A stretch of 63,411 nucleotides of DNA, the filler included, from Stramenopiles sp. TOSAG23-3 (taxonomy: Eukaryota): assembly GCA_900128585.1 (NCBI GenBank). It is 6 parts of 6 records of this genome, joined end to end, with 100 filler letters (N's around TTAATTAATTAA, not from the genome) between each part and the next. Parts side by side here need not be neighbours in the genome. Positions count along the whole stretch, not along the records: positions 21,218 to 31,703 come from LT642810.1; 5 more parts are not named here. The stretch is one strand, 5' to 3'. The position numbers and the translations under genes were made by a program. The notes under the pieces were generated by a model. It was not told where the DNA came from. It did no database searches and was given only the letters and a program-made list of their open reading frames with translations. Below, piece by piece: positions 17,572 to 42,280 of this stretch (positions are counted from its first letter, which is position 1; the number at the start of each line of letters is the position of its first letter).

Positions 17572-19491
17572 ATGGCAGCGTTTTACGATGAATATTCAGA
17601 GGAACTTACGTACAACTTCATGAGGGGAAACGCTGCAGATTTAATACGTGTGTCCGCGAAAAGTAGTGCTGTGAAATCTATTAAATCTCAGCGGAATGAA
17701 AGCAGCAAGTCCAACATTATATTTAGCGAGCTGGTAACGTTGTACGATCCAACCGTACGGTTTAAGAAGAAAAAGGAGTATGTTCTAGTTCTAACAGAAG
17801 AAAACTTGTACCTCTTAGATCCGTTGCCTCCGTTCGAGTGCTCGAAACGGGCACCAGAAGGGGTACCGGTGTCTTGGGTCTCAAAAATATATGCCGATAG
17901 GATTGGTTCACAAGTCATGCTCAAGATTCCTGCCGACTACGATATGTGGCTAGAGGTACCTGCCAAAACTCAATTCCTGCACATATTCAGCCAATTGCAT
18001 AAACTGTTCCTGCAGGAAAATCCAGAAGGAAGGCAAATTGACTTGCAGATTGCATTTGTCTTCAATCTTGGAAGTCAACGGGAAGCGAAGTACGTTGACG
18101 CCAAAATTGCTTCGAAAACGAAGTCGTACAAAGATGCGAAAGATCGAGTCCACTTGCTTCTTCGGGAAGCGAAAAAAGCGCAGGGCATTGCCATGTCCAA
18201 AAAGAAGGTCCAAATGTCACCGTCGAAGAAAAAGGCGTTGCAGAAGAAGAAATTAAAAGTACAAAAAGACCTGCTGAAAAAGAAACAGCAAAGGGCGGAG
18301 AAAAAAGCGTTGCCTGCAACATCATTGCACACCAAGATACCAAGGCACCCGAGAGACAAAGCGCTGCCAAGCGACCACCCCAAGAAGGCCGCACTGCACT
18401 CAGAAGGGGCCCAAATGATTTCCCTGATCGGAAAAGACAAAGTACTCTTCCTTAAGGAGTTAGAGAGGACCGTGCGAAGGTACGACGCTGCTATTGCGCA
18501 GCATGCGGGCCAACGCTTCGAAAACTTTCAGCAGAAAATTTTTTATTCCAGCGAATTTAAGTTTAAAGCAAGGACTGTTACGTTAAGCAGCAACGAGACA
18601 TTTTTCCCAAATGTGTACTGTGATACCACGAGATCATTTATGTCGGTCCGAAAGATTCTCAATATTCCGGGGGTAATTAGCAATGAACAAAAGCCTCTCA
18701 TCGAATTGAAAGGGCACCTAGGGGTTATGGAAAACCTTGGAACTTTCGAAGAAACCCATAGACCGAAACGAAACACAGGCGGGGGAGGCAACCGGTCGAA
18801 TTCAGGCGTTACGAAGCGGTACAAGTACTATCTCATGAACCCTGTTGACAGCAATTATACTCAACTCTTGGAGAACTCTCCGATTAAATTTGGGCTGCCC
18901 GTGAATGAAGTCGCCGTCCGAATGGGAGATCTGCTGCTTCTGCTGCAATCTTGTCACAATAACAATTATTTCTTGGGAGCGATTTGCCTGAATGATATGT
19001 ACGTAAAGAATGACCCAGCCAACAAAAAGGGTTTTGGAAACTTGAAGTTTTTTCAATTTAACAAGTTCAAGAAAATGAAACCGGCCGATATGCGGCACTT
19101 GGAATTCGAAGAAATTTGCTCTTGCCCGAAAGCCCTTATTGCACAAACCTTGGGCAGTTATACCATAGAACGCCTTCAAACGACGAAAGAAATGGACTTT
19201 TGGTCGTACGGCATCTTGCTGTTCAAGATGTTGACGGGAAAGTATCCATTCCCTGACCTGGGGGAAAAATTTAGTTTACAGCTGTTTTACGACATTTTAA
19301 ACGGGGGCAGTTTCGATATTAACGAGAAAATTAATTCTTCCGGGATTGACGACCAGAGTGCGAAGTTCCTGTTGAAGAAGTTGCTAGTGCAGGATCAGAA
19401 AAACATTTCCATGACAGATTTACTGAATAATTCGTTCTTTTCACATTCTACAGCGATTCAAAAGCACCGCCATTCAGTAGGGGAAATATAA
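17572..19491 (+). CDS. PH/myosin-TH1-like N-terminus, basic linker and C-terminal pseudokinase
   Basis: IIFSELVT...VLVLTEENLYLLD is TH1/PH-like. Kinase subdomain IX DFWSYGILLFKMLTGKYPF is present; the HRD and DFG positions are replaced (FLGAICLNDM, FFQFN). Confidence 0.65.
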   Translation: MAAFYDEYSEELTYNFMRGNAADLIRVSAKSSAVKSIKSQRNESSKSNIIFSELVTLYDPTVRFKKKKEYVLVLTEENLYLLDPLPPFECSKRAPEGVPVSWVSKIYADRIGSQVMLKIPADYDMWLEVPAKTQFLHIFSQLHKLFLQENPEGRQIDLQIAFVFNLGSQREAKYVDAKIASKTKSYKDAKDRVHLLLREAKKAQGIAMSKKKVQMSPSKKKALQKKKLKVQKDLLKKKQQRAEKKALPATSLHTKIPRHPRDKALPSDHPKKAALHSEGAQMISLIGKDKVLFLKELERTVRRYDAAIAQHAGQRFENFQQKIFYSSEFKFKARTVTLSSNETFFPNVYCDTTRSFMSVRKILNIPGVISNEQKPLIELKGHLGVMENLGTFEETHRPKRNTGGGGNRSNSGVTKRYKYYLMNPVDSNYTQLLENSPIKFGLPVNEVAVRMGDLLLLLQSCHNNNYFLGAICLNDMYVKNDPANKKGFGNLKFFQFNKFKKMKPADMRHLEFEEICSCPKALIAQTLGSYTIERLQTTKEMDFWSYGILLFKMLTGKYPFPDLGEKFSLQLFYDILNGGSFDINEKINSSGIDDQSAKFLLKKLLVQDQKNISMTDLLNNSFFSHSTAIQKHRHSVGEI

Positions 19492-24665: not shown

Positions 24666-26483
24666 TCACGCAAGGGTCATCCCACTGCAGCCGATTTGGC
24701 CGGCTCGGTTGCGAGAAGACAAGGGGCTGTGGAGCAGCCCTTTGCCAACGTTGACGCCTTGTTTTCTGGCCATAAGTTTGTTCTGTTTGTCGATGTGCTG
24801 CATGTACCTGTACCTTTGCTTGGTCTTTCCCTTGATACGGATTTGGTCTTGAAACTCGTGAATATTGTTGTGAAACTCGACCACTTTGTCCAACTGTGAC
24901 CCCAAGTACTCCTTTTGTCGCGTACGGACACTGCGGGGCGGCAGTTTGTGGTGCCACTCCCATCCACTTTGATTCAGACGCTTCTTTTCCCACTGCTGCC
25001 ACCCCTTTCCTTTCTCGTCAAAGGACTTGTTGAACCGCAGGGGGCTCCGGCGACCTTGCTCACCTTCGTAAAGTCCAGATTTAGCCAGGGTGCCGTCTCG
25101 ACCCACACCAACTCGTTTCCAGGTTTTATCGTTTTCGTCTAGTTTTGGTGAAGCGCGCATGTTCTTCCCAGATTGCCTTGAATCCAAAAACTCCCGCCCG
25201 GACAATGGTGCTAGGTCCCTGGTGTCGATCTGCAAGGAGCTTTTGAAGTGCGGCTTGGTCTCTTCGTAGCGACGGCGCAGTGGTATGAAGTGCTGCCTGG
25301 ACGAAGCCGAGCTCGCCGTCTGCGCGCGAGGCACGGGCAAAGTGGAATTACCACTGTTCGCTATTTTCGTGTTTGGGTCGTCGAAGAACAAATGATCGAA
25401 CCGCCCTGTTTTGAGGTTATCTAGCGAGAGTAAATTTGGCATGGACGCGGTGTTGGTCCGGCGGCTGCTGCTCCGCTGTTCCATGATCGGCGAAGGCTGC
25501 CCCAGCGGTGTCAGTGTCGGGCTTTTGCTTTTGCGACCAAGCTGGCGAGTGCTGTTGATAATGTTGTCGTAGTCGGAATGATCGGACCGTCCACTGCGCA
25601 CGACGGACCCACCAGTTCGCACCGGGGATTGCCGCGGGTGCTGGGTCTGGTTCGCTTCGTCCCCGAAGCGTTTTGCGCTGCCGGCGGCCGAATGCCTAGT
25701 GGGAGACAAGGTGGTCATGGGCCGCCGCTGGCCACTGACCTCCGGGCTGCCAAACGCCTGGGTTGGAACGGGTTGAACCGACGATGTTGTCGGCCGGCTC
25801 GTTGGAAACGTTCTCGTGCCGACGAACTTTGGTTCTTTTGGTAGAGCACCGGAGAAAGTTTCCCCCCCAAAACGAAGGGGCTCCTTCATTGATTCTTTCA
25901 GGAACTTTGTTTCCCGCGCCCTTGCTCGATCGAGCATAACTCGAGCGTTTGGCTTGTCCGCCCCCATCAACGTTTGGAGAAATTCCTGAAACGTGATATC
26001 CCCGTTGCCATCGATGTCGCACGCGATACACAGCTCGTGGACTTCTTTCGAAGACAAGCCTATGTCCAAATTGTCTGGGCCTACCGCAGTCTCAAACTCA
26101 TCGTAGCTGACTCCTCCGTCTCCGTCCATGTCTATTTCTTTGTAAGCTTGCAGTAACATCCGAGTGTCCTGGCGAACTTTGCCAAAGCCATTCCCTGCTT
26201 TCCGCTGAAGGAGCCGGTCGACCACTCGACGCTTCAGCGAGAACAGTTTCTGCGCGGCTTCCACCCGTTCGCGCTGGGATGGGGTGTCGTGCTTGCGCTT
26301 CATCAGTCGTTGTCGATCCTCCAACAGTTGCTTCTTTTTCATTCGCGCTTTGTGCATCTTTATCGTCAACGATTCCCGCTTTGGTATCCCTTTTGGCAAA
26401 TGCAAGCGTGCTGAATGTGTCAGGTCACGCGGCATATCGCCCCGAAAGGGCAATGTGTCATAATGATTTGGTCGAATGAACAT
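24666..26483 (-). CDS. EF-hand pair protein with a long disordered tail
   Basis: DMDGDGGVSYDE and DIDGNGDITFQE EF-hand loops. Confidence 0.8.
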   Translation of the reverse strand: MFIRPNHYDTLPFRGDMPRDLTHSARLHLPKGIPKRESLTIKMHKARMKKKQLLEDRQRLMKRKHDTPSQRERVEAAQKLFSLKRRVVDRLLQRKAGNGFGKVRQDTRMLLQAYKEIDMDGDGGVSYDEFETAVGPDNLDIGLSSKEVHELCIACDIDGNGDITFQEFLQTLMGADKPNARVMLDRARARETKFLKESMKEPLRFGGETFSGALPKEPKFVGTRTFPTSRPTTSSVQPVPTQAFGSPEVSGQRRPMTTLSPTRHSAAGSAKRFGDEANQTQHPRQSPVRTGGSVVRSGRSDHSDYDNIINSTRQLGRKSKSPTLTPLGQPSPIMEQRSSSRRTNTASMPNLLSLDNLKTGRFDHLFFDDPNTKIANSGNSTLPVPRAQTASSASSRQHFIPLRRRYEETKPHFKSSLQIDTRDLAPLSGREFLDSRQSGKNMRASPKLDENDKTWKRVGVGRDGTLAKSGLYEGEQGRRSPLRFNKSFDEKGKGWQQWEKKRLNQSGWEWHHKLPPRSVRTRQKEYLGSQLDKVVEFHNNIHEFQDQIRIKGKTKQRYRYMQHIDKQNKLMARKQGVNVGKGLLHSPLSSRNRAGQIGCSGMTLA

Positions 26484-27388
26484 CGCCTGCAAAGAACCAC
26501 CTCTTCTTGACCCAAGCCAGAACCAAACAACAACAACAGAACGATCACAACCTTATTCCTCTCCCCGTCCAATGCCCAACTAACACTGGTATTTGTGGTT
26601 TAACATGGGTACTTCTTTAATAGCGCAGAGCAACTTTCTTCTCCTCGTTTGGATAAAAGATACATGTATAAAGACAACAGAACGACGACGAAAGAAGAAA
26701 AAAAATAGAAGAAAAAAAGGATTACATATATTTTTTTATATTACCGTACTAAGAGGACATTACATCATCACAGCAGAATTAAATATAAATCCGTTTACAT
26801 TTTTATATTATTTATGAAGGAATGAAGAAGGAATGAATGAATTATCATATTATATCATAGTCGTAGTTACTAGACTACTATTAGACTGACTATCAAATAT
26901 TTAAAATTATAAATTATATAGATATAATAAAAAAGGAAGAAATAATTATCCAATAATTATCCAATAATCTAAATATCTTCTGTACGTATTTTATTTAGAT
27001 TCTATACTTTTATATTGATTAGATTATTATTATTCTACCTATCAACACAAGTGGGGTTTGGGTTAGTGCTAAGTACGAAGAGGAGAAGAGGATACAAAAG
27101 AAGAGGACGAACTGAACTGAACTGACGAACTATTTTTTATTATTTTTTATATTTTATATTTTATTATTATATTTATACTGCTGGGAGGATGATATTTGTT
27201 CTGACCGTTACAGTTTTTTGTTTTGAGTTTTTATTTTTTATATTATTACACTATTTAAAAGTTCTGCACGAATATTAATGAACAATGGTCGCCTCCCTGT
27301 CTTTGAAGACGTGCATAGTCAACAGCCAAGCATCAATTTTTACAAGTCGGTCAAAAACTCACCAAGTTCAACTTATTTGTTGTTCACC

Positions 27389-29572
27389 ATGGGAGATATT
27401 GAGGTTCTTGCAAACTCGGCAGAAGAGTTGGAAGGTGAGGCGAGGGAACTTTTTGCCAAATACGACCTTGACAGGTCGGGAACATTAGACCTTGGCCAGT
27501 TCACCATCCTGCTGTCGAATGAAATAGGAATCCCACCAGACGATATCGCCGATGTATTCGACGATTTTGACGAAGACCACAATGGTACAATAGATTTCGT
27601 GGAGTTTGTGAAACACCACAATCTCCTCGTGGAAAGGCAACGAAAGCGGTTTGGAACGCGCGGCGGAAACGGCCCTAAGAAGGCGAGCCAAACTTTGAAA
27701 ACGGGAAGAACGCTCTCGGGATTGTTCCCAAAGGGCAAACGTATCGCTGTCATATTTGCGTGCGACGATTATGTGGGTTCTGAACATGAAGGCAAAAGCC
27801 TTGCAAATTTAGATTTCGCAGTGAAAGACGCTGAGCTTTTTCGTGATACGATTAAGGCAGCGGGGTTTGAAATATTCAGTTACAAAGTGAATGGCGAGTG
27901 CACCAGCGAATCGATGCGAAATGTACTGGATGACGTTATCAGCCATTTCGAAGAAACGTCCACAATTGCACAGTTTATTTTTTACTATGCTGGACACGGG
28001 GTGAAAGACAAGAACTCAAAGGGTTGGTTTGCGTTGAACAAATACAACAACAAAGATCGTAAAACAAAATTTAAAATGGCGGAATTGAAGTCCAAAGCAA
28101 GCGAGATAGGAGCCATTCAACAACTGTACGTTTTGGACTGTTGCCACGCTGGGGAGCTCTTTGGAAAAACCCGTGGAGTAAAGCTAACGTTTGGGTTAGA
28201 ATTAGCGTCCAAGCCATGCGTATTTGGGATCACCGCAGTGACGGGGGACCAGGAAGCAGAAGAGGGGGACGGGCATGGCCTGTTCACTCAAACCCTGTGC
28301 TACGGGATTGGTAAGAAACAAGCCGCAATGGGAGATAAACCTTACGCCACGTCTAACGATTTGCTGGAATTCGTGCAAATACGCGTGCATGAGAAGAGCA
28401 ACAACAGAATGCAACCATGTGGTGAGAAAATGCTGCACGATCATTTTGACAACCCATGCAATGGGCAATTTATCATGTTTCACGAAGAGACCATCAACAA
28501 CTTGAAAGCTGACTATGAGCAAGAGAATGAGGCCAGGACCTCAACAAAGAAATCCCGCGGGGTTGGGGCACAGAAAGTTCTACAAGAATTGCCCAGTGCA
28601 GCGGACGACAGCGTGCAGGATTTTGTCAATTCTATTGATGGGGTAAAAATAAAAACAAATTTGACTCCAATCTTTTCCGCTCTGAACGTCTTTGATGTAT
28701 CCGATCTGACGGAATTGAAAAAAAACATGGTGGAACAAAGATTACTGCCACGGTTGAAACGACTGGAGCAGAAAAAATGGCTCCAAGGCGATGTTATTGA
28801 GAAAGCAAAGGCTTTCACAAAGGCAAGGTTGGAAGCCATAGAATCTGATGCGTCAAGAGCCCGAACAATAAAAGAATGGTTGTCAGTGCTCCCTAACTCT
28901 CAAACCGAGAGCGTAAAACAATGGTTGGTGAACTATGGGCTTGAAGACTTTGACGATGGTTTGGAGGATGTAGTTACGATGGAGCAAGAGGACATAATTC
29001 AACTGTGTTACGCTATGGCCAATTGCAAGGCCTACACGCGTAGGTGCCTATTTAAAGCGTTGAAAGGTTTAGATAGTAGGCTACAACCGGCAGTGGAAGA
29101 AGCGAAGGCAGCAATGAAATGGGCAAGGGAAGAAATCAACAAAAATCACTGCGGGAAGGTAATACCAGGAACAGGAAATAAATATAGACCGATAGATGGT
29201 ACATCGGAAAAAGGCTGCCAACTTATAGCAAGACTCCTTGGATTGAAACTTGGTGGTAATGGCACCCCTTTTGCCGGAAATTTTTCAAACAAAGGTCTTT
29301 ACGCTTATTCAAGTGGTCCATTAAAAGGTTGTGCGTTTTTTGGAAGGGGCGGAAGCGAATCTGATATGCTAGAAAAACCCCTCAATAAAGCTATAATGCA
29401 CAGGCCATTAGATTTTACGTCTGAAGAATGTTCTGAAAAGATTGCAAACATTCTTGGTTTAAAACTTGGTTGTGTAGGAGGCTACGCTTTTGCTGGCAAC
29501 TACAAAACAAAAGGCCTTTACACATACGGTGATGGTGAAGCTTATTTTGGGCGGGAAGATGATAAAAAATAA
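27389..29572 (+). CDS. EF-hand, Peptidase C14 (caspase-like), SAM-like domains and a duplicated C-terminal Gly-rich repeat
   Basis: EF loops DLDRSGTLDLGQ and DEDHNGTIDFVE. C14 motifs RIAVIFACDDY, LDFAVKDA, FYYAGHG (catalytic His), VLDCCHAG (catalytic Cys), GHGLFTQTL. caccATGg at 27389; an in-frame upstream ATG lies at 27278. Confidence 0.85.
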   Translation: MGDIEVLANSAEELEGEARELFAKYDLDRSGTLDLGQFTILLSNEIGIPPDDIADVFDDFDEDHNGTIDFVEFVKHHNLLVERQRKRFGTRGGNGPKKASQTLKTGRTLSGLFPKGKRIAVIFACDDYVGSEHEGKSLANLDFAVKDAELFRDTIKAAGFEIFSYKVNGECTSESMRNVLDDVISHFEETSTIAQFIFYYAGHGVKDKNSKGWFALNKYNNKDRKTKFKMAELKSKASEIGAIQQLYVLDCCHAGELFGKTRGVKLTFGLELASKPCVFGITAVTGDQEAEEGDGHGLFTQTLCYGIGKKQAAMGDKPYATSNDLLEFVQIRVHEKSNNRMQPCGEKMLHDHFDNPCNGQFIMFHEETINNLKADYEQENEARTSTKKSRGVGAQKVLQELPSAADDSVQDFVNSIDGVKIKTNLTPIFSALNVFDVSDLTELKKNMVEQRLLPRLKRLEQKKWLQGDVIEKAKAFTKARLEAIESDASRARTIKEWLSVLPNSQTESVKQWLVNYGLEDFDDGLEDVVTMEQEDIIQLCYAMANCKAYTRRCLFKALKGLDSRLQPAVEEAKAAMKWAREEINKNHCGKVIPGTGNKYRPIDGTSEKGCQLIARLLGLKLGGNGTPFAGNFSNKGLYAYSSGPLKGCAFFGRGGSESDMLEKPLNKAIMHRPLDFTSEECSEKIANILGLKLGCVGGYAFAGNYKTKGLYTYGDGEAYFGREDDKK

Positions 29573-29866: not shown

Positions 29867-31396
29867 TTACAGTGGTATGCTTGAGACATCCAGATCGTAT
29901 TCAAGATCCGTAGGTTCGTCGACTTCGGTCCATCCCCCGTCGATGAAAACGGGCGACACTTTGACACCGCTGTTGATCAAACTTTGAAGAAGAGTCGTCA
30001 TGTACATGTTCGGGTAACTTTTCCCGTCGTACATAGCATTTTTGTCCAGAGCGTGATAATGCTCTCGAAGGATTTTGACGCCCGCCGCAGAAAATTTCAT
30101 CAAGCCAATATACTGGCCCTCAATTTCATCGTAAGATTTCGGCTTTTTTCCAATTTCAGTGATAAACCCATCCTCGCTAATTTTCAAAGTCTCTGCATCG
30201 GTCAGAGGGTTCTCCATCCTGGCTTCCCACAAAGACCGCCACTGTCGATCGATTACAACTGAAACGTCTGCATTGCTAGCAAGGAGCGCTTGAACTATTT
30301 TTGGGTTGTAGATGATGTCTGAGTAGCTCAGAACCAAATCGTCCACCGAATCGAGCTGTTCCTCTGCACAAAAAAGAGTTGCGACCATGTTGGTCTTGTC
30401 ATAATCCTTGTTGACAATGGACGTTGTGTCTTTGCGTTCCAACACCGAAGCTAGGTACCCCTTTACCAAGCAAATATCTTCAACGCCAGAGGCGCGCAGA
30501 GAGGCCAAGATGTAGTCGATGATGCAGTTGCCTTTGTACTTTACCATGCACTTTGGTACGGTATTTGTCAAAGGCCTGAGCCGGCTGCCTTGGCCGGCGC
30601 ACAGGACCACCGCCCGGACCTTCTTTCCTTTGTACGCAGCGAAAAAGTCGTCCTCTTTAACGAAACCAGGCCGTCCGCAAGTTTTTAATGGGCCAGAATA
30701 GTTCTTATAGCTATCTAGGTTGCGGATGCCCTCAGCCACCGCTTTGATTTTAGGGTATGGCCCAAAGCAGTCCAGTTGGATCTCCTCCCGAAGACGGCGC
30801 AGGCACATTTCGTCCTGCCAGTCCATGTGCTGACACAGGAAGAAGTCTACGTAGGACGGCGAGTCCCCAAAGAAATATGGCCCTTTGATACCACGTGATA
30901 GGTTCGTCGCCTGCTTCGTAAACCTGCTCGGCTTCTCGCTCCCGTCACCTTCAAGGTAAATCTTCAGAGCCGCGCCACCTGCCCCGGAATTCTTTCCAAT
31001 CCCACCTTCGAACAAATCGACAATGTCTGCAAGATACTGGGCCGCTTTGAACTGGTCCACGCCGGCGCCCAAGCCACTCTTTTGGCCAACGTACGTGGTA
31101 ACAGCAGTGGATTGGGAAATTTGGTACTCGCCATCAACAACGATAGGGGGGGCAAATGTATCCGAACCGCCCCCGAAAGCAGTGCATACGCCTGCAATGT
31201 CCGGGAAGGCAGATATGTGCTCGTACTTTGTGCCAGTGTGCTCAAGCATGCGAAGGGCTGCCCCGGCTCTGCCAAACATCGGCCAGTAGTAAACTTTCAG
31301 TTTCTCTGAAGCAAAAGAAGTCATTTGTTGATTGCTTCGTCGTGAGGGATTGTGCTGCGGTTTGCTTGTCGGTTTGAATAAATTGTCGTCACACAT
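29867..31396 (-). CDS. Glutathione S-transferase domain fused to a phosphocholine-cytidylyltransferase-family (LicC-like) NTP transferase
   Basis: GST: KVYYWPMFGRAGAALRMLEHTG, FAPPIVVDGEYQISQSTA, YFFGDSPSYVDF. NTP transferase: AVVLCAGQGSRLRPLTNTVPKCMV, TNMVATL, SYSDIIY, EGQYIGLMKFS, WTEVDEPTDL. Alternative start at 31324. Confidence 0.85.
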   Translation of the reverse strand: MCDDNLFKPTSKPQHNPSRRSNQQMTSFASEKLKVYYWPMFGRAGAALRMLEHTGTKYEHISAFPDIAGVCTAFGGGSDTFAPPIVVDGEYQISQSTAVTTYVGQKSGLGAGVDQFKAAQYLADIVDLFEGGIGKNSGAGGAALKIYLEGDGSEKPSRFTKQATNLSRGIKGPYFFGDSPSYVDFFLCQHMDWQDEMCLRRLREEIQLDCFGPYPKIKAVAEGIRNLDSYKNYSGPLKTCGRPGFVKEDDFFAAYKGKKVRAVVLCAGQGSRLRPLTNTVPKCMVKYKGNCIIDYILASLRASGVEDICLVKGYLASVLERKDTTSIVNKDYDKTNMVATLFCAEEQLDSVDDLVLSYSDIIYNPKIVQALLASNADVSVVIDRQWRSLWEARMENPLTDAETLKISEDGFITEIGKKPKSYDEIEGQYIGLMKFSAAGVKILREHYHALDKNAMYDGKSYPNMYMTTLLQSLINSGVKVSPVFIDGGWTEVDEPTDLEYDLDVSSIPL

Positions 31397-32212: not shown

Positions 32213-35200
32213 TTAGATCCCAATGTCCATCACAAGCACGACCCCTGCCAACACCCATTTTGCACTCGGTGCTTTTGTCCTCAAGTTGGCGGAGAAAACA
32301 TAAGTTGGACCTCGCTGCTGTGTCTTGTAAACCGGGCAAAAGTACTGACTTGAAGTTTCCGCCTTTTCGGCAAGAACGGCCTTGCACTGAATTACTGGCA
32401 TTTGAAAGAACATTTCTTTCGGCCGGCTCGGTTCTAAAACACCACCGCCCAGATCAAAGCGCGCGCCTTCAAGATACAGGCCGTTAATAAATGCCCCATC
32501 CCTTGCTGCGGCTTCTATGTCTTCCACTTGCCGTTTCAAAACTGTTGTATTGATAACTAGTTTGTCCAATTCAAGTGTATTTGCACGGGCTGACTCCTGC
32601 ATAATAGCAGTTAAGAACCGCTGTGGGTTGAACAGACCTGAGATCCAGGTGCACCGCGGTGGATCCATCGGACTTACTGACCATTCAGACAGTTGAGTAA
32701 CTCTTTGCATCAAATTCTGCAACCACAAAGGGAGTGTTCTCAAACTCGGAAAGGCAAATGGACGCACTTGCCACGCTTTCGGGATCTCCAGTGTGTAAAG
32801 TTCAGACATCAACTTTTCCATGTCGCTTGACATGGTCATCTCGCCACGGAAGCCTGCATCAAGTTCTTCAAGCGTGTGGCGCATGTGAGAGACCAGTGCA
32901 TTCATTGTTTCGCATTCTTGAAGAAAAACGTTTTGGAACGGCCCGGGATCATCCAAATTGCTCAAAATTTCATCGATATCAAAGTTTACTTCCCGGTACA
33001 CTTCCATTATATCCTGCACCAATGCGTCAGCAATATTTTGGGGGTTACTCGGGGTACTATCATCGCCTTCGTCGGTGCCTGAATTCTGCGGCATTAATGA
33101 CGTGACTGTCTTGAACAAATGGACGGCCTGGTCCGTACGAAACCCAATTTCAGCATTTGGGTGAAGCCCAAATGCAACAGGGGAATCACCTACCATGTTC
33201 GTTTCGACATATTTCAGGTACATGTCGTACGTAGTTGGCGCCGGTGCCTTGAAAGACAAACCTAGAGCTGCTGCTTTTCCCCCTTGCTGATGCTCTTCGC
33301 CGTACGGATACAATTCCATCTCATCCAACAGCTCGTCCCGGAGATAGAAATCTAAGTAGCAATTACACAGCAGCCTGTCGAAATCGTTGACAATGTGCCC
33401 ACCGTACATGATCTCACCAATTAAGTACCGTAGGTCATCCCAAGGCATCTTGGACGGGGCGCTATCCATGTAGTTCCTCAACACCACCCCGGATGCTAGC
33501 AGATCTTGAATCGAGAAAGGGTATTGCATATTGAACCCCTTCGGTCCGAAAGTCTTTCGCTCAATCATAACAGAATGAAAGTGGCACAGTCCGAACAAAA
33601 TACCGCGAGTTTTTTGCTCCAATTCTTCGAAGTCGCCCTGCGAAAAAGAGCGGAAGGAACGTTTGAGGTTCGCTTTCAGGCCTGCAGGAGGCTCGTTCGT
33701 GATTTTGATGGATCGATCCAAGATGCTAACTGGGATAGATTTAGCAGGATCGCTGGACAAGAAAAGCCGGAAGTTTTTGTGCGATCCTTCCTGTGACATC
33801 CCATCCAACATCATTTGCAACTTTACTAGCCATTTTGGCATCAAGTGAACATTGTTCAGCATGATCCAATGGCCTTGCGAATGCGCGCCTTCAATGCGCT
33901 CGTTTGCAATTTTGTCTTGCCCTTGCCCCATTGAAATGTTAAAAAAGTTAGAGCCCAATTCCATTCCGTTCTTTTTTGCTAACCTTTCCACGTCTGAAAC
34001 AACATCCACCCCGGGCGACAGTATGAAGTATAATGGCGTTGCAGGAGTGGAATCGTCATAAAGATTCTCCAGTATTTGGTACGAGTTCAATTGTGCATCG
34101 ACGTCAACAAAAATCTTTCCACCGGGCAGCACATCTGATATGAACGTTCTAAGAGCGGCAATCATACGGTCGGGCCGTAACGCGCGGACGGCTAGCAGCT
34201 TGAGGAATGGAGATTTGTCTAATTCGCGCCAGTCTAAAGGAAGTTTTTCGGATTCCGGTGTAGATAAATTAAACCACTCGCGAAAACGCGGGGCACTCTC
34301 GATCATATCAGATGTGAACGTCTCGAACCCGCTACGGGTTGCCAACGACGAGCAAGCGTTCCAGGAATTGTCAGGAAGCCATTCGATTGAGTTGTCTTCG
34401 TCCGCCGTCTCAACTCCACCCCGCATCAGCCAATCCATGTGCTCGCGCGAGTAGCCAGAGTCCTCTCCGATTACTTTGCGTTGGAGCAACTGAAATACCA
34501 GGGCAGAAAGGAAAATTTCTACATCCCTTTGAAAGAGACCGCGGGTGATCCACGTGTAACAAACTATGCGCAAGTTACCCCTCAAGTTTTCGACCCGTTG
34601 CTGAAGATCATTACTCTTTGGGGCCCGCTCTAGGGCTTTAAAAAAGAAGACCAAAAAAGAATCTAGACTGTACTGGTACATGTGGTCGATCTGCTTTAGC
34701 TCATTTATCAAAAAGTAAAGCATCGCGGCTTCAGCAGCTACAGGGACATATTGATTTCTTGCAAGATCAATGTTTTTCTGCATTTCGTTGCCTTTCTCCA
34801 CGGCGGAATTAATTTCGGTTACTGTCCTTTTCGTATCTTCAAGACCCTCGATCAAGGCCACGTCAGACAAAATATCATCTGGTGCATTAGACAAGCGTTC
34901 CAAGAGCTGGTTCTCCAGCTCACGTAGCTGAATTTTGTAGCGATTGAAATCACTGCGCAGCTTTGCACTAGATTCCTCCAAAGCTGGCTCCTCCTGCTCG
35001 ACAACTTTGGCCAACAATTGGTCTTGCAACCCCTTTTCTGTGACGAGGAAGTTGATTAATGTTGTCTGGGCCGCAACTTCTGGGCGGTAATGAGGGTTGC
35101 TAAGCTTAGTTTGCAAGTACAATCTGAAATTCTCATCGTATGATACCTCATTTCCCCCAACAGACATGAACAAATTGCGCCCTTTGCGGTACACAGTACG

Positions 35201-38200
35201 CATTAACACCGGGTCAAGAACACTGTCAATCTCTTCACCGAGATTTTCAATAATACAAGGCCACCCATTTTGAATTGCCCCGACAACTTTGCGCAGCCAA
35301 TTTTTCTGGGTCATTTGCACAACGATCAAATTCCCGGATGGCGCCTTTTTGTTGGCTTCTGCATCCTCAATTTCTTCGTTTTCCTCGCCTGACTCTTCGT
35401 CGCCACCACCGATGCCCAAACGCGACTCCTCCATGTTCCGAATCCATTTAATTCCTTGCAATTGAGGATCGATTACAAGCGGCCATCTAGAGCAGCTTGT
35501 CATAATCGCACCATTTTCTTTCGACATCCTATCCGCGGGAAGTCCTTGGTTCATCCACTCAGCAATTTCTGCACTGTTGGTCAATTGCCCCATAGGGTCT
35601 ATCCCTGGTGTTACGGGGATTTCGCGTGCTGCCATGTCATCCATCCACTTCTTACTCCAAAGCTCATTTCGCAGCGGTGCATTAAATGCTCCAGAGTATG
35701 AAACAAATGCAGCTGATAACAATACGTCACCAACCAACGAAATTTCGTTCTCCTTCAAAGCTTCAACTTCGTGGCCCCAACGAACTTTCTCCGAGGACAA
35801 ACCGTGAACAAGGCGCTCTGCCATGGACAGTCGAGCACGGCACGAATCCGCTTCTGCTTCAACTTTCGCCTTCTCATTGGTTGCATTTAGGAATGATTGT
35901 TGCAGCTCCGATAGACGGTTTTCTAAATTATCGACAATGGTCACAATTTCATCGAGGGCAGCCTGCGCGACAGCTTTCTCTTGTTGTGCCTTTTCCAATT
36001 GTTCCATTAGGGGTTTCACTTTCTTGTAAATCGTGTTGTAGCCGGTAATGTTAATAACCCAGGCGCACAAATTTGACGCAGCATCAGATTTTTTCTTCAT
36101 TTTCGCTACATCCATTTCCTTATCTTTAAGCATTGGAGCAAGACGGCTGAGAACATCGTCTGGGATATTCCGTGGATCGTAGTCTTCTAGGCTTTGCTTA
36201 AATCCATCAACCTTTGCCATCATCTTCTTGGCATTTTCCCATGAGAAATTTTTTCGTTCATTCTTTATCATCATCAAAACACACGTGGTGACTTTGTCGA
36301 TACCAGGGGGCGGCTTGGCAAAACTCTTTAATTCAATTAAACTATTCTTACTCAAGCAATTCACGGCATTCTTTGCGGCATCCATCGCTGGTTTGGCTTC
36401 GGCCAGTTCTCCCTCCGCGCTCTTTTCGATTCGCTCGGCCTCAGCAGCAAGCTTCGAGCATTTTTCTTTTTCGATAGCTGCCACTTTGCCTTGCTTCTCA
36501 GCCTCTCCTCGTTGTTTTCCCATTTGTTCGAGAAGTTGGTCTGTGCCAGCCTTTTTCTCTTCAACGCGCGCCATGGTTTTCATCAAATCCAGCTTCAGCT
36601 CGGAAACATCTTTCTCTGTTCTCTGAAGAGTCTCGAGGCCAACGCTGAGGCGGTTGATATTACCAGCAAGGGTCGTCTGTTGCCTCTTGTACAAACTCTT
36701 AAAAAAATAGATTAATTCTAGGAAGCTTTTCGGTGTTGTGTAGTTGTAGCGCCCAAAGGTTTTGAAGTATTTCATCGATGCATTCTCCACCGATAAATGT
36801 ACCTCAGACATATGATCAGGAACGTTCATTTTTATGTCTTCATTTGCTACTTCAACCTCTTCTAGGAATTTCTGCGCAACAGACACCAATGCCGTCCGCG
36901 GCCACGGATGAAACCAGTTAATGCTAGTGCAATTGCACAACCCGGGAAATTTCTGGGCCCGAAGACGAAACTGGTCGCCTACGGGTGAAAAGCAAAGCAC
37001 CGTATGCAAGTTACTGCGTACCCTCTGCAAGAAAAAGTCCATCATATTGTCACGTGTGTCCGGTACCCCGGCTGCTTTTGCTTCATTTCGTAGCATGGCA
37101 AATATCGAATCGTACTCTTCGGCCGTAAACAAATCGGGAATATAGCCTGATGACAACAAATCATTGATAAATACTAAAAAAATTTCGTCAACGATCATAG
37201 AGTCGGTCAACATGAAAACCAATGGATTCGCAGGCTTTACCCCAGCCTTATGATACAGGCCCTTCAAATGCTCTTTTAAGTCAGCGACTCCATAGTCCGA
37301 TGTAACCGGCAGAGTAACTACATTCAAACCGCTAAGAAACGCCGCCAAACGACTAAGACTTTGCTTCCCGCTACCACCAACGCCCACTAGGAGGGCGTTT
37401 CCTCGAGGATTTTCAAGAATTCTAGATATCCTACACACATGTTGCACGGCCTGTTCAAAAAGTACAAGATTCATTATCGCATTCGAGTCATTGTATTCCT
37501 TCAACTTGCCTTCCAAAATCGAACGCACTTGCTGGGATGACTTTACGTCAATGTAAACCCCTTCGTCCATCATGGAGAAGGTGCAAAATGATGTAAATAA
37601 CAACGGCTCCGTATGTACAATGTCTTGATCCAAATCTTCAAAATATTTTTTAGTACAGTCGATCAACATTGCAGTGAAGCGGGTGTGCTCATTTGGCGTC
37701 GTTAATCGATCACCGAAAACGCGCGCACATTCGTGCTTCCAAAGCCGTGCTATTTTTATTTCGTTAGAATAGAAATCAGGGGTCGCTTTGCATAGGCCCT
37801 GAAATATGTTGGAGAATTCGCGCATGTTAAAATTATAGTGGAATTTAATTGCACTGGGGAGGAATTTTTCGGAGACTGTATTGTGAAATTCGATAGTACC
37901 ATCCACCATATTTTTACAATATGCTTGGATGTTCGGAGGGAATGCAGCTAGATGAGCGGACATAATGCTCGAGTAAATCAAACTCGTATCCTCGGACCCA
38001 GGCAACAGGGCAGCGAGGACAACAAAATGTCTTTGTAAACGTGGGTTAATCGTAAATGAACCGCTTGTAGGATTCATTGCCGCCACATATTGTACGTCTT
38101 TAATCTGTTTTTTCAGGCTAGGATCCGAACGGTCAAACCATGTTTCGTAGTCCATATGCTGGCGTAGCAATGCAATTGGCGTTTGCGTCCCGTACTCTTC

Positions 38201-41200
38201 TTTGAAGGGCATGTTCAAATCATCGATGAAGTAAACTAGATATTTTTGTGCCGGGGGGCCAAAGACTTTACCCGATCGCTTCTCAACGGGGGCCTCCAAT
38301 TGCTGCTGTAGCGCCAAAGAGTCTGTGTAGTAATTCATATTGATCGTGCAAAACAAGTGTCCTTCTTCCATGTTTCTTAAATATTCTCTCAGAAGTTGGG
38401 TTTTTCCAGTTCCTGCAGCGCCCACCAAAAGGACAGGCCGCTTGCGTCTGACAAGCCTGTCGACATACGCTGTCATTCTTGTACTATTAACGGTGGGAAC
38501 AAAAATCGAGGAGAAATTTCCATCGCCAACATGAACATACTCTTCTACTTTTCCGGACCAAGGTAAAATGTCCCCTGAATCAACATCGTAGTAGTAATCC
38601 AAGACGTGGCCTTCACCTGGGAAGATGACCTTTTTAAACTCAGAGCGCCATAATGTGTTAAACTTCGTGCGTGATGCAGATTTTTTATCGTCTGTCAATG
38701 GCCCACAAAATGCCCAAAGGCAAGCCATGACAAAAATATGCTCTATTTCATCGGCGCCTTTTGTGGTGTCTTCCGGGTCAATCTGCGCTAACAAGCCGTC
38801 CAATAAATAGCATATGCTCTGAATGGTGCACATTTTCGAAACAGGGACGATCGTGCTCAAGTCATTTTGCTTTATAATTTCAAACGCCCTCGGAATGTAT
38901 TTTTCAAAAAATCCTGGCAGTGTTGAAGTCTCGTGTACAGCAGTTCTGGATTCAATCCAACTTTCTATGTATGGAGTGTATCCGATGTCGGTTTCATTAA
39001 TAAACAAGATTCCAGCCCGTGAAACGGTGGCGGGAGTAGCATTCGCAAGGGAATTAATCTCAAAAATCATTCTCATAGCGGGACTTAGTGGAATGCGTTC
39101 ATTACTAACTAATGTCAGAACTTTATTGTCGTCCATAACTGTGTTCATACTCTCGATCCAAATGGCATCGATGTCACCATCAAGAACAACCCATTTGTAC
39201 GACTGGAAATCGTGATATGGCATGTTGTTCTTAGACATGTTGCGCATAATTATGGACAGAACCCCGTCTTTCCAATCCTTCGCTAAACTCATGTAACCAT
39301 ACAATTCATTGCTGGTGATGGATTTCGGATTGACGGTCTCGTACACGCAAATAGGCTTCTTTGCACCATCATTGTGACATGCTGCGAGCGTTGACCAGAT
39401 CGATGTCTTCCCGCATCCATTGGGCCCAATCAACATGACAGAGTGGCGTACATCCAGTAGCTCTTGGAACTCTGAAACTTTACTGATGAATGCTTCATCG
39501 GGTTGTAGCCCCGTTTCTTTGCATATCTTCTGGCACGTTTCTTGCAACGCTTCATCCACTGATTTCTCTAATTCGAGGCCTGGGAATAAATCTTTAATAA
39601 GCCTTAGAAATATCGGGATGTCTTGAGAAACCATTTTTGGGGTGTTAAAATCTCGAAGGGCTCTCATCAAAATCATTTCCTCGTCTACCATTGGTTCTGC
39701 GCGCTTCAACATTCCCGCGACCGTCAAAACGCTTTTAACGGCCCTCAATCCCCAATCGTAGTGGGGTTGTTCCGTCAATAGTTCGCTGCTTAGTTGATAC
39801 AAAGTCACAAACTTGATGGAAAGATTGCGCGCTTTCATAAAACCTTCTGCCATCAGCATGTTTTCACAAATAGGTTTCAAGTCGGGGCGAATCATAGCAC
39901 AACTACGAAATTGTGCTTTGAGATTCTCGGGCAATTCCGTGCGACCAGCATACCCTGGGTTCATGGTGATCCAAAATCCCACTGTGGGCCAAAGTTTAAT
40001 GGAATCACCCATGAAGTCAAAAAACCCTACGACGCATGGCGGAGTCCCGGCTGGCTTATTACGATAGTCAGTTGGACGGTTCGAAGGGATGGCCAAGAAG
40101 CGAATTGCATCTAAAATGCTCTTTACTTGCGTGGCAACTACAGACAATACTTCTATCTCGATTCTATTGAACTCGTCGAAGCAACCCCATGCCCCTGTCT
40201 GCGACAGTCCCCTAAACGTGTTCCCTAACGATTGGTAATTCATTTGCTCTGAGCAATTGAAGACATAAATCGGTAGACCCAGAGACCGAGCGAGATCCTT
40301 GGTGGTTTCTGTTTTCCCTGTTCCAGCCGGGCCAGCCGGTGCACCTCCCAGCATCAGACGCAAAGCCATTGTGAGGGTGATGTAGCACCTGTCAGTCAGC
40401 GGAGTGATAACAAGGCGTGACTGGTTGCCGTGGTATTCAAAACTATAAATGGACCGGAAATCACAGATAGACATTTTCACGTCACGGCTTTCTTCGTCCC
40501 AGTAGTATCGCAGCTGGGATTGCCAGCGGAACACCGTTGGGCCTTCAACCTTTTCGTCAATCAAAGTCTTGATGACATCGCGAGCATGGACATCGATGGT
40601 GATCATAACAATAGCTTTCGTTCTGTCTTCTTTCGTTAATTGGCCTTGCACCAACAAAATAAGTGCATCCAGTCGACTGTTACACAATTCTAAATATCGT
40701 TTAACTGCGTCCTCGTCGCCTCCTTCTAGTTCTTCCAGCGAATTTTCTGTTTCTTCCGTCCAGTACACCTGCGAGGCCAATAACGCAAGCTGAGCGGGGT
40801 AATCCCCGATCCAGCGGTCCCGCGGTCGATCAAGTTCCCAGTTTGCCGCGCTGTCCAATGATGCATCCAAAATCTGCTTTAAAGTCTCTTTCATAGTTTC
40901 CAACAGTTCCCCCAACCAATTCTCTACGGCACCAGTAATTTGAAACATTGCATTGAACGGGACTCGTTCGCCGTCTTTCGCAATCATGGCGGTCGCAACA
41001 TTTGCAATTTCTGGGGTACCATCTTCTTTCTTCAAGGGTTCATTAAATTCTAATGTATCTACAGCAAGAAAGCAGTCACCAATGTGGCGCATAATTCGCG
41101 GAGGGTTGTTCCCGTTCGATAGTATGTCCAACAAGGAAGTATCACTGACGAAGTAAAACCGGGGGAAAATGTTCTTCTTCGTGTCCAAGTACTCGTTCAG

Positions 41201-42280
41201 TGCTTTTTGGCATAATTCCAATTCGTCGCTCATGCTTTCCAGCTCCTCTTCGCGCCCTCCATACGAGCATGCTTGGACAACCACCGGAGTGTTGATGACA
41301 TCACCCATCATATTTCGAAATGACTGGTCAATACCCTCAAATCGCTTCGTATCATCCGGCAACTGGGATCGAATGTCTTTCGAGGTCAGAAAAATGGATT
41401 CCAAACTCATCCATGTGCGCTGGACACTTGTCCAGAGTTTCAATACAGTTTCCACCGTGCCCAAAGTACGCTGCCATTCTTCGACTCGGTCTCGAAAATA
41501 GTCTACAAATTTCCCCATACCAGCCATTGTTTGAAGGTTCAGCTGGTGTTCCTCCAACACTTCGACAATGTCTGAAGAAGCTCCTAACATTTTTGTCTCG
41601 CTGTCTTTGTAAGGAACAAAGTTGAACGCTAGGCCAGTCCACGCATCCTCAATGGATTGCATCCTCTTTTCGATCTTCCGTTCTTTAACTGCCACTTCCA
41701 CGATCTCTTGCACATCGTCAACGTGAGCATGCAATTTGAGATCCAACACATTTGCTAAACAGAAATGGGCACCCTTGTCGAAGTGACTGTGAGTCAAAGT
41801 CATAACGCTCTTCCAATGGCGGTCTTGCATCGCTTCGTTGTGCAGCTCGCCGATTAAGGGGATAACTACAGCCATGTTCTTGACGCGGTCCGATAGTGTC
41901 TTGTACACGACCCAATTTCTCATACCCCGTGGCAATGTGCTCACCTGTTTGTCCAGATGGGAAGTCTCTTCCAAAAGGTTGTCACAATCAATATCAAGCC
42001 AAAGCGTCCCTGACCACTTTTCAAATTTCGCATCGACCAAGGCAGTGATGTCCCACGCTTTCTTCAGTATAACGATCTCAGATCGGGAATCTTTCAGTTC
42101 AACGTACTCGCTTTCTGCCAGTTCGAACAGTTCCTCCAAATCGTGGAATTCCAGAGCTTCTTTCTCTATATTGCGGAGGAGGTTTACGTGTTGATCCAGC
42201 ATTTTGTATGCTTCTGAACTCGGGCCGGTATATGAAAATGGGGCGTTAGTCCTGAAATTCATCCGGAACCGATTGACTTT
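32213..42280 (-). CDS. Axonemal dynein heavy chain, probably outer-arm beta-like (DNAH9/11/17 class), 5'-partial
   Basis: AAA1 GPAGTGKTET, CFDEFNRI, MNPGYAGRTELP; AAA2 GPNGCGKT; AAA3 GAAGTGKT; AAA4 GVGGSGKQS; stalk/MTBD; C-terminal CPVYKTQQRGPTYVF...KWVLAGV. Frame is open to the contig end and uninterrupted over 10 kb. Confidence 0.95.
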   Translation of the reverse strand, partial: KVNRFRMNFRTNAPFSYTGPSSEAYKMLDQHVNLLRNIEKEALEFHDLEELFELAESEYVELKDSRSEIVILKKAWDITALVDAKFEKWSGTLWLDIDCDNLLEETSHLDKQVSTLPRGMRNWVVYKTLSDRVKNMAVVIPLIGELHNEAMQDRHWKSVMTLTHSHFDKGAHFCLANVLDLKLHAHVDDVQEIVEVAVKERKIEKRMQSIEDAWTGLAFNFVPYKDSETKMLGASSDIVEVLEEHQLNLQTMAGMGKFVDYFRDRVEEWQRTLGTVETVLKLWTSVQRTWMSLESIFLTSKDIRSQLPDDTKRFEGIDQSFRNMMGDVINTPVVVQACSYGGREEELESMSDELELCQKALNEYLDTKKNIFPRFYFVSDTSLLDILSNGNNPPRIMRHIGDCFLAVDTLEFNEPLKKEDGTPEIANVATAMIAKDGERVPFNAMFQITGAVENWLGELLETMKETLKQILDASLDSAANWELDRPRDRWIGDYPAQLALLASQVYWTEETENSLEELEGGDEDAVKRYLELCNSRLDALILLVQGQLTKEDRTKAIVMITIDVHARDVIKTLIDEKVEGPTVFRWQSQLRYYWDEESRDVKMSICDFRSIYSFEYHGNQSRLVITPLTDRCYITLTMALRLMLGGAPAGPAGTGKTETTKDLARSLGLPIYVFNCSEQMNYQSLGNTFRGLSQTGAWGCFDEFNRIEIEVLSVVATQVKSILDAIRFLAIPSNRPTDYRNKPAGTPPCVVGFFDFMGDSIKLWPTVGFWITMNPGYAGRTELPENLKAQFRSCAMIRPDLKPICENMLMAEGFMKARNLSIKFVTLYQLSSELLTEQPHYDWGLRAVKSVLTVAGMLKRAEPMVDEEMILMRALRDFNTPKMVSQDIPIFLRLIKDLFPGLELEKSVDEALQETCQKICKETGLQPDEAFISKVSEFQELLDVRHSVMLIGPNGCGKTSIWSTLAACHNDGAKKPICVYETVNPKSITSNELYGYMSLAKDWKDGVLSIIMRNMSKNNMPYHDFQSYKWVVLDGDIDAIWIESMNTVMDDNKVLTLVSNERIPLSPAMRMIFEINSLANATPATVSRAGILFINETDIGYTPYIESWIESRTAVHETSTLPGFFEKYIPRAFEIIKQNDLSTIVPVSKMCTIQSICYLLDGLLAQIDPEDTTKGADEIEHIFVMACLWAFCGPLTDDKKSASRTKFNTLWRSEFKKVIFPGEGHVLDYYYDVDSGDILPWSGKVEEYVHVGDGNFSSIFVPTVNSTRMTAYVDRLVRRKRPVLLVGAAGTGKTQLLREYLRNMEEGHLFCTINMNYYTDSLALQQQLEAPVEKRSGKVFGPPAQKYLVYFIDDLNMPFKEEYGTQTPIALLRQHMDYETWFDRSDPSLKKQIKDVQYVAAMNPTSGSFTINPRLQRHFVVLAALLPGSEDTSLIYSSIMSAHLAAFPPNIQAYCKNMVDGTIEFHNTVSEKFLPSAIKFHYNFNMREFSNIFQGLCKATPDFYSNEIKIARLWKHECARVFGDRLTTPNEHTRFTAMLIDCTKKYFEDLDQDIVHTEPLLFTSFCTFSMMDEGVYIDVKSSQQVRSILEGKLKEYNDSNAIMNLVLFEQAVQHVCRISRILENPRGNALLVGVGGSGKQSLSRLAAFLSGLNVVTLPVTSDYGVADLKEHLKGLYHKAGVKPANPLVFMLTDSMIVDEIFLVFINDLLSSGYIPDLFTAEEYDSIFAMLRNEAKAAGVPDTRDNMMDFFLQRVRSNLHTVLCFSPVGDQFRLRAQKFPGLCNCTSINWFHPWPRTALVSVAQKFLEEVEVANEDIKMNVPDHMSEVHLSVENASMKYFKTFGRYNYTTPKSFLELIYFFKSLYKRQQTTLAGNINRLSVGLETLQRTEKDVSELKLDLMKTMARVEEKKAGTDQLLEQMGKQRGEAEKQGKVAAIEKEKCSKLAAEAERIEKSAEGELAEAKPAMDAAKNAVNCLSKNSLIELKSFAKPPPGIDKVTTCVLMMIKNERKNFSWENAKKMMAKVDGFKQSLEDYDPRNIPDDVLSRLAPMLKDKEMDVAKMKKKSDAASNLCAWVINITGYNTIYKKVKPLMEQLEKAQQEKAVAQAALDEIVTIVDNLENRLSELQQSFLNATNEKAKVEAEADSCRARLSMAERLVHGLSSEKVRWGHEVEALKENEISLVGDVLLSAAFVSYSGAFNAPLRNELWSKKWMDDMAAREIPVTPGIDPMGQLTNSAEIAEWMNQGLPADRMSKENGAIMTSCSRWPLVIDPQLQGIKWIRNMEESRLGIGGGDEESGEENEEIEDAEANKKAPSGNLIVVQMTQKNWLRKVVGAIQNGWPCIIENLGEEIDSVLDPVLMRTVYRKGRNLFMSVGGNEVSYDENFRLYLQTKLSNPHYRPEVAAQTTLINFLVTEKGLQDQLLAKVVEQEEPALEESSAKLRSDFNRYKIQLRELENQLLERLSNAPDDILSDVALIEGLEDTKRTVTEINSAVEKGNEMQKNIDLARNQYVPVAAEAAMLYFLINELKQIDHMYQYSLDSFLVFFFKALERAPKSNDLQQRVENLRGNLRIVCYTWITRGLFQRDVEIFLSALVFQLLQRKVIGEDSGYSREHMDWLMRGGVETADEDNSIEWLPDNSWNACSSLATRSGFETFTSDMIESAPRFREWFNLSTPESEKLPLDWRELDKSPFLKLLAVRALRPDRMIAALRTFISDVLPGGKIFVDVDAQLNSYQILENLYDDSTPATPLYFILSPGVDVVSDVERLAKKNGMELGSNFFNISMGQGQDKIANERIEGAHSQGHWIMLNNVHLMPKWLVKLQMMLDGMSQEGSHKNFRLFLSSDPAKSIPVSILDRSIKITNEPPAGLKANLKRSFRSFSQGDFEELEQKTRGILFGLCHFHSVMIERKTFGPKGFNMQYPFSIQDLLASGVVLRNYMDSAPSKMPWDDLRYLIGEIMYGGHIVNDFDRLLCNCYLDFYLRDELLDEMELYPYGEEHQQGGKAAALGLSFKAPAPTTYDMYLKYVETNMVGDSPVAFGLHPNAEIGFRTDQAVHLFKTVTSLMPQNSGTDEGDDSTPSNPQNIADALVQDIMEVYREVNFDIDEILSNLDDPGPFQNVFLQECETMNALVSHMRHTLEELDAGFRGEMTMSSDMEKLMSELYTLEIPKAWQVRPFAFPSLRTLPLWLQNLMQRVTQLSEWSVSPMDPPRCTWISGLFNPQRFLTAIMQESARANTLELDKLVINTTVLKRQVEDIEAAARDGAFINGLYLEGARFDLGGGVLEPSRPKEMFFQMPVIQCKAVLAEKAETSSQYFCPVYKTQQRGPTYVFSANLRTKAPSAKWVLAGVVLVMDIGI

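Follow-up and report, generated by a model that had tools for sequence, protein, structure and literature searches.

An open reading frame from a stramenopile that joins an EF-hand pair and a caspase-like protease domain to probable SAM-like bundles and an undescribed C-terminal repeat

The reading frame, its EF-hands and its protease domain

We analysed a stretch of 63,411 nucleotides (filler included) from Stramenopiles sp. TOSAG23-3 (assembly GCA_900128585.1), six parts of six records joined end to end; we refer to this whole stretch as the window. In the part taken from LT642810.1 we found an uninterrupted open reading frame (ORF) at 27278..29572 on the plus strand that encodes 764 amino acids. 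The predicted protein contains, in this order, an EF-hand pair, a basic linker, a peptidase C14 (caspase-fold) domain, two probably SAM-like helical bundles, and two copies of a Gly/aromatic domain. The frame is open throughout and a reading without introns suffices. The ORF is real, and both 27278 and 27389 are possible starts. The Met at 27389, the alternative start, gives a protein of 727 amino acids (P0001), and the stop codon is at 29570-29572. The 110 bases before Met 27389 encode 37 residues that have no similarity to the sequences of the relatives, and no further coding exon was found between 26500 and 27270, which is AT-rich and contains short frames only. The choice of start does not affect the domain content; that is, the same domains are present with either Met. 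Residue numbers below are those of P0001, and all features of the gene are on the plus strand.

The EF-hand pair (residues 18-75; 27440..27613) matched Pfam EF-hand_7 at E 2.3e-12, with 47.5 bits compared to a cutoff of 30. The top sequence matches of this region in the PDB were chains of calmodulin, troponin C and RSP7. A preliminary description of this locus, made from the sequence alone, had proposed such a pair, and the Pfam match confirms it. The second EF-hand loop, DEDHNGTIDFVE, is canonical throughout. In the first loop, DLDRSGTLDLGQ, position 12 is Gln where the usual bidentate residue is Glu, so just one Ca2+ site looks fully competent. The pair is followed by an Arg/Lys-rich linker (residues 76-116; 27614..27736) that separates the EF-hands from the protease. 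The linker is partly conserved in two relatives described below (P0003 and P0004) and was predicted with low confidence in a structural model of the whole protein (model 1; 5 sequences, mean predicted local distance difference test score [pLDDT] of 44.6, partly usable). It may serve as a processing or autoinhibitory segment.

Residues 117-353 (27737..28447) are a peptidase C14 domain (PF00656). The match covers profile positions 1-232 of 233 (E 5.9e-17; 62.6 bits, cutoff 21.4). The catalytic residues are His203 (codon 27995-27997), in the motif YAGH203G, and Cys252 (codon 28142-28144), in the motif LDCC252HAG. We aligned this domain with 24 homologues (alignment A3, 25 sequences). His203, Cys252 and Asp250, which is two residues before the Cys, were each on invariant columns. 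The motif [HN]G[LIM]FT and the D-x-C motif of the active site were common to all 25 sequences, the YYAGHG of the query was present in most of them, and LD[AC]C..G, (S/T)A..G.Q.A.E, GHGLFT and Q.P were common to most or all. An Arg-Gly after the catalytic Cys was nearly invariant. The full-length Pfam match and the invariant columns bear out the C14 domain with an intact His-Cys dyad that had been described at this locus. The p10-like part of the domain (ITAVTGDQ...GHGLFT...QP) is contiguous with the rest and lies C-terminal to the p20 part, with ~28 residues between Cys252 and ITAVTGDQ (residue 281).

These features bear on whether the protein is an active enzyme. It could instead be a non-catalytic scaffold (a pseudo-protease), or the gene could be decaying. 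Pseudo-orthocaspases exist in bacteria (PMC6426788), and the second copy of the C-terminal repeat is truncated. However, the dyad, Asp250 and all of the conserved family motifs are intact, and the frame of 764 amino acids is open. In addition, a 99%-identical, full-length protein of 764 amino acids (P0002) comes from contigs of other assemblies, and relatives at 67% identity keep the same EF-hand and C14 core. We consider a scaffold or a decaying gene very improbable.

We compared the C14 domain to the three types of metacaspase, which differ in layout. Type I metacaspases have a Pro-rich or zinc-finger prodomain N-terminal to p20 (PMC6426788). This type was ruled out, as the N-terminus of the window protein is an EF-hand pair and no other Pfam family was found there. 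Type II metacaspases have a linker of over 66 amino acids, about 160, between p20 and p10 (PMC6426788; PMC3734836). This type was ruled out because there are ~28 residues where the long linker would be. In type III the p10 is N-terminal to p20 (PMC3734836). This type was also ruled out: residues 1-116 are the EF-hands and the basic linker, and the p10-like part comes after p20. A metacaspase p10 has been defined by a score of at least 30 bits with a p10 hidden Markov model, and MaOC1, an orthocaspase, shows activity although it has no p10 of the metacaspase kind (PMC6426788).

The best-scoring curated family of the C14 domain was NCBIfam NF047832 ("caspase, EACC1-associated type"), with a match over nearly the full profile (positions 9-210 of 211, E 3.9e-17). 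The domain is not a member of this family because it scores 62.5 bits, far short of the curated cutoff (140). It also differs from the family in that it has no known EACC1 partner and is encoded by a eukaryotic nuclear gene. The PADLOC "caspase" model matched at E 6e-8. In a phmmer search of the C14 domain against the PDB, none of the solved caspase-family chains, including those of metacaspases, was found below E 0.4. A profile of the C14 family reached MALT1, AtMC4, AtMC9, Yca1, TbMCA2 and the bacterial protein GSU0716 at E 4.5e-4 to 1e-2 and over the N-terminal part only; the solved metacaspases among them aligned with the p20 part of the profile (E 6e-4 to 1e-2).

We also searched 5.8 billion proteins with residues 105-375 and found 32 proteins at E 0.001. 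Five were from the protein's own family, counting an ankyrin-kinase-C14 protein (P0009) with 33% identity. The other 27 were C14 proteins; about half of them also had WD40, TPR, Sel1, LRR or CARDB domains, and 8 had C14 alone. Contigs of 4.2 and 5.3 Mb encode two of them. Among shorter proteins 13 passed, and the sole source name was "caspase family protein [Flavihumibacter sp.]". There were no named eukaryotic metacaspases in either list of matches (the 32 proteins and the 13 shorter ones), and no named protease of this kind from diatoms or other algae was among the matches of the C14 protein searches. One ENA protein of 315 amino acids (P0210) was 98% identical over 32% of the C14 query, yet its precomputed family is ubiquitin hydrolase (PF00443). 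P0210 may come from a chimeric contig or from a different gene junction in another assembly.

Bacterial-type metacaspase-like proteases (MCPs) are a described class in phytoplankton, with a proposed bacterial origin (PMC3734836), and their prokaryotic counterparts have been named orthocaspases (PMC6426788). Like the phytoplankton MCPs and orthocaspases such as MaOC1, the window protein has a C14 p20 core with the His-Cys dyad (PMC3734836; PMC6426788). As in that class, there is no metacaspase prodomain, no long linker and no N-terminal p10, and extra domains at the termini are common. Unlike in the MCPs, the C14 domain here has an EF-hand pair on its N-terminal side, and two SAM-like bundles and an undescribed repeat on its C-terminal side. 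The kept dyad, the lack of a metacaspase layout, and the bacterial-type multidomain C14 proteins as nearest relatives support an assignment to the metacaspase-like protease/orthocaspase type. This assignment is made from best matches and motifs, and the class is itself partly defined by absence. The preliminary description had placed the protease closer to bacterial caspase-like proteases than to type I or II metacaspases, and this held, with NF047832 as the best family and no solved metacaspase below E 0.4 by phmmer. The protease class is not new, having been published already for phytoplankton (PMC3734836).

The middle bundles and the C-terminal domain

The region between the protease and the C-terminal repeat (residues 404-578) was modelled as two helical bundles, with pLDDT mostly above 90 (model 2; residues 401-727, an 85-row alignment, mean pLDDT 83.3). 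The first bundle (residues 404-481; 28598..28831) looks SAM-like by fold. The second (residues 490-578; 28856..29122) has a faint SAM-like sequence signal, with SAM_2 at E 0.051 (14.2 bits, cutoff 20.5) and SAM_3 at E 0.098 (13.0 bits, cutoff 22.6), both below cutoff. The module region of a relative (P0138) matched SAM_1 at E 0.012. We searched the PDB with a 6-sequence profile of the module (A5), which replaced a profile (A4) whose matches were dominated by ankyrin repeats present in two of its sequences. The SAM domain of EphA2 made up 7 of the 14 rows (E 0.049-1.3), and the alignment spanned the whole SAM domain. SAM was the commonest match for both bundles, with all scores weak. When model 2 was compared by Foldseek to the PDB and BFVD there was no match at E <= 0.001, and the lists of similar folds were taken up by the helical region. 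Predicted self-association of two copies of residues 401-584 scored 0.00, which counts neither for nor against binding. Both bundles are probably SAM-like. Of the two or three SAM-like segments proposed previously, two are seen and a third is not, and the SAM identity is weakly supported, as all Pfam scores are below cutoff.

The SAM-like module is also found without a protease. In P0040 and P0046 it is followed by ankyrin repeats, and in short proteins it occurs alone, indicating that the module is portable. The ankyrin arrays of P0040 and P0046 are long, and in P0046 a highly charged stretch rich in Glu, Lys and Arg lies between the module and the array.

The C-terminus contains two copies of a Gly/aromatic domain of ~65 amino acids. 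Copy 1 is at residues ~596-672 (29174..29404) and copy 2, which is shorter, is at residues 673-723 (29405..29557). The copies are identical at 29 of 56 aligned residues. Their alignment score was 127, compared to 24.7 +/- 4.6 for shuffled sequences, and none of 2000 shuffles scored as high, which substantiates the C-terminal repeats mentioned in the preliminary description. In model 2, copy 1 had pLDDT 90-96 over most of its length and was predicted to form a helix, then short strands and a short helix. The family consensus is ..C..AA..LGL.LGG.GY.FAG.Y.TKG[CL]YAYSSGKYAGMAFFGTGGT..M......KYRP.

We found that this domain is shared by many proteins. An exhaustive search with residues 395-727 recovered 315 representative proteins at E <= 0.001, 39 of them at E <= 1e-10. 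Among the 150 matches listed of the 315, 7 were on the middle module and the rest were on the repeat. The repeat unit was present in 145 of 185 proteins gathered: once in 94, twice in 44, three times in 6 and four times in 1. Pfam scans of 51 relatives gave no family at all for 28 and at least one for 23. Of these 23, 21 carry the repeat and 2 carry the SAM-like module only, with ankyrin. The enzymes found beside the repeat include tyrosinase, a calpain-type C2 protease (P0055), a transglutaminase core, and a legumain-like C13 protease with PEX11. Other Pfam families in the 23 relatives include a fascin-like beta-trefoil, kringle, PAN, TSP1, VWD, fn3 and ANF receptor, as well as Vps62, PH, PB1 and EF-hand. 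Such varied partners, adhesion domains as well as enzymes, are the pattern of a mobile binding module.

Sequence searches for a known counterpart were negative. Pfam gave no family for the query repeat at E <= 1, and none was common to more than 1 of 46 members. A profile search of the PDB gave a single row at E 0.87, and the ESM Atlas gave unnamed clusters only, at 0.85, with no named match. In a text search by motif, six motif strings of the family were absent from all of about 8.4 million papers. With a low-sensitivity method that detects close relatives, prokaryotes gave one 18-residue match, on a bacterial contig, that we take as chance, and viral contigs gave none. As judged from these searches, the C-terminal copies belong to a domain family that is so far undescribed and has some breadth.

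Relatives of the gene and its surroundings

The full combination of domains was found only in the protein's own 90% cluster. We saw about 5 related clusters; besides its own, three share the EF-hand and C14 core or a fragment of it. P0003 (879 amino acids) has the core and the same middle module, followed by LRR_6 repeats, and P0005 is a fragment of this LRR form. P0004 (828 amino acids) has the core, a different beta-rich stretch, and then ankyrin repeats. The C14 domains of P0003 and P0004 are 79% identical to that of the window protein, and the C-termini are unrelated. In all three full-length relatives the EF-hand pair adjoins C14. Both P0003 and P0004 carry an additional segment at the N-terminus; in P0003 it matches SAM_1 at E 0.019, below cutoff. 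An upstream exon for such a SAM segment was considered and rejected for the window, as the region before the gene offers short frames only. The members of the clusters are all unnamed or "hypothetical protein", and a scan of JGI metagenomes for the family found 2 loci, one 100% identical and one an ankyrin-type relative.

From these comparisons this looks to be a very small protist family with a constant core of EF-hands and C14 and a C-terminal module (Gly/aromatic domain, LRR or ankyrin) that is swapped. The architecture that had seemed unfamiliar is indeed rare and unannotated, neither widespread nor named. The novelty lies in this combination of domains and does not extend to the bacterial-type protease class, which was described before (PMC3734836). 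An EF-hand motif has been noted on 7 archaeal orthocaspases (PMC6426788). In PMC10888605, the EF-hands belong to a separate death-specific protein and not to the metacaspase.

The swapping of C-terminal modules on a conserved core brings up the possibility of a sensor-effector in immunity or cell death. The EF-hands and caspase core would be the effector, the swapped C-termini would be ligand sensors, and the SAM-like bundles would polymerise as in SARM1, giving an NLR-like logic without a nucleoside triphosphatase (NTPase). Repeats of the LRR and ankyrin kinds are typical of sensors. The curated family that comes nearest is from the EACC1 type of bacterial protease-effector defence module, the PADLOC "caspase" model was matched, and EACC1-linked caspases act in phage defence by cleaving a latent pore-former (bioRxiv 10.1101/2025.11.14.688446). 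However, a score of 62.5 bits against the cutoff of 140 leaves the protein outside that subfamily, it has no known partner effector, and gene neighbourhood means little in a eukaryote. There are ~5 clusters and 2 metagenome loci, without the expansion or diversification that is typical of immune families. In addition, the occurrence of the Gly/aromatic domain beside many ordinary enzymes suggests a general binding module and not a pathogen sensor. We regard an immune or cell-death sensor-effector as possible but unlikely. A broader notion, that marine protists carry modular "sensor-caspases" as NTPase-free switches for immunity or death, with the Gly/aromatic domain as a ligand-binding module, widespread and lineage-specific, that would direct many enzymes such as proteases, tyrosinase and transglutaminase to a common target, is speculative and seems to us doubtful.

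The window is eukaryotic nuclear DNA. It encodes a dynein heavy chain, myosin, kinases, a COMM-domain protein and a mitochondrial carrier, with AT-rich spacers between genes. The AT-rich spacer 5' of 27278 extends to a divergent gene (24666-26492, minus strand) for a mostly low-complexity protein of 608 amino acids with an EF-hand pair at residues 113-173. Downstream, a convergent gene (29867-31396, minus strand) encodes a GST C-terminal-like part fused to a nucleotidyltransferase domain of the MobA-like kind. The dynein heavy chain ORF (32213-42262, minus strand; 3349 amino acids) is intron-free, and its matches begin at N-terminal region 2 (DHC_N2). An ORF at 60-5315 (plus strand) encodes an ankyrin-IQ-WW repeat protein of 1751 amino acids. 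The dynein and ankyrin-IQ-WW ORFs show that long genes of this genome can be read without splicing. A myosin motor is split between two overlapping ORFs in different frames, 43007-44311 and 44308-48360 (both plus strand), with Pfam Myosin_head positions 4-274 in the first and 280-679 in the second. The split, at ~44308, suggests that the assembly is in error there or that the gene has a frameshift or a short intron. Another ORF (17572-19491, plus strand; 639 amino acids) combines an N-terminal myosin TH1 tail, whose match falls short of the Pfam cutoff, with a protein kinase domain that is represented by its C-terminal half. Either the pairing is an uncommon one or the gene has an intron that escaped detection.

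Near-identical DNA was present in 14 sequencing runs that had at least half of the sampled words, 4 of which may be the source itself. Most of the 14 runs are labelled as marine or seawater metagenomes. In poly-A or reverse-transcription (RT) metatranscriptome runs the fraction of the sampled words was 0.21-0.28 (3 runs) and 0.16-0.18 (3 more runs), which is no evidence of expression.

Possible working of the protein

We think that the protein is a soluble multidomain cysteine protease from the bacterial-type caspase branch, with parts for Ca2+ sensing, SAM-based assembly and repeat-based targeting, and we give this reading a probability of about one half. The EF-hand pair, with its one canonical Ca2+ loop, and the basic linker would keep the protease latent until Ca2+ rises. 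The two SAM-like bundles would gather several molecules and thereby bring about the proximity for activation. The two Gly/aromatic copies would recognise a target or ligand and thereby position or direct the enzyme. Asp250, which precedes the catalytic Cys, suggests that the enzyme cleaves on the C-terminal side of Arg or Lys residues, like metacaspases and orthocaspases. With this specificity, the protein might cleave itself in the Arg/Lys-rich linker (residues 76-116) or at the conserved Arg-Gly that follows Cys252. Stress signalling is one possible role of the protein, and regulated proteolysis and cell death are others. Such an arrangement might provide for gating by Ca2+ or a ligand, for activation through polymerisation, and for a part in death or immunity. 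Caspase-fold enzymes generally need proximity; either proximity or dimerisation activates caspases and paracaspases. Polymerisation is a property of SAM domains, and metacaspases are Ca2+-dependent.

Several observations weigh against this picture of a Ca2+-gated, targeted protease. Loop 1 of the EF-hand pair departs from the canonical sequence at position 12. Copy 2 of the Gly/aromatic domain, which ends at the stop codon and is poorly modelled in model 2, is shortened by four residues in the hairpin loop and by the loss of the C-terminal GG...KYRP tail. The protein is probably cytosolic, a location that is read solely from the absence of an obvious N-terminal hydrophobic stretch.

The degenerate loop 1 would also fit a protease that a binding partner or an upstream cleavage event switches on, with the EF-hands and bundles serving only to localise it or to act as a scaffold, for example at a Ca2+-rich or cytoskeletal site. 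The Arg/Lys-rich linker and the nearly invariant Arg-Gly could be cleaved by another protease as well, and in P0040 and P0046 the SAM-like module accompanies ankyrin repeats where no protease is present. On the other hand, loop 2 is fully canonical, and the retention of the EF-hand pair beside C14 in all three full-length relatives suggests functional coupling. Activation from upstream therefore appears rather unlikely to us.

A protease that senses Ca2+ directly can be compared to several known systems. Like the metacaspases, the window protein has an Asp two residues before the catalytic Cys and probably the caspase-hemoglobinase fold, and it may share their Arg/Lys specificity and Ca2+ dependence. 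It differs in that the sequence relation is marginal, there is no type-defining layout, and Ca2+ sensing would come from fused EF-hands and not from sites within the protease. Calpains are also cysteine proteases fused to EF-hands. This is an analogy only, since calpains have the papain-like C2 fold and the domain here is a caspase-like C14. The MALT1 paracaspase was the top match of the C14 family profile (E 4.5e-4), with a weak score. Unlike SARM1/TIR-1 and MALT1, the window protein has no TIR, death or Ig domain, and all of the scores are weak. Together with calpain and the metacaspases, activation driven by assembly, of the type seen in SARM1 and MALT1, is the closest working analogy.

Where phytoplankton and other marine protists undergo programmed cell death, proteases of the caspase family are commonly suspected. 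What is new here is the exact architecture, which is rare and unannotated, and the undescribed mobile domain; the protease class itself is known. A Ca2+ sensor and probable self-association modules that are hard-wired to a bacterial-type caspase-like protease make a regulatory design that is directly testable. Naming the Gly/aromatic domain and finding its ligand would help to annotate hundreds of protist proteins.

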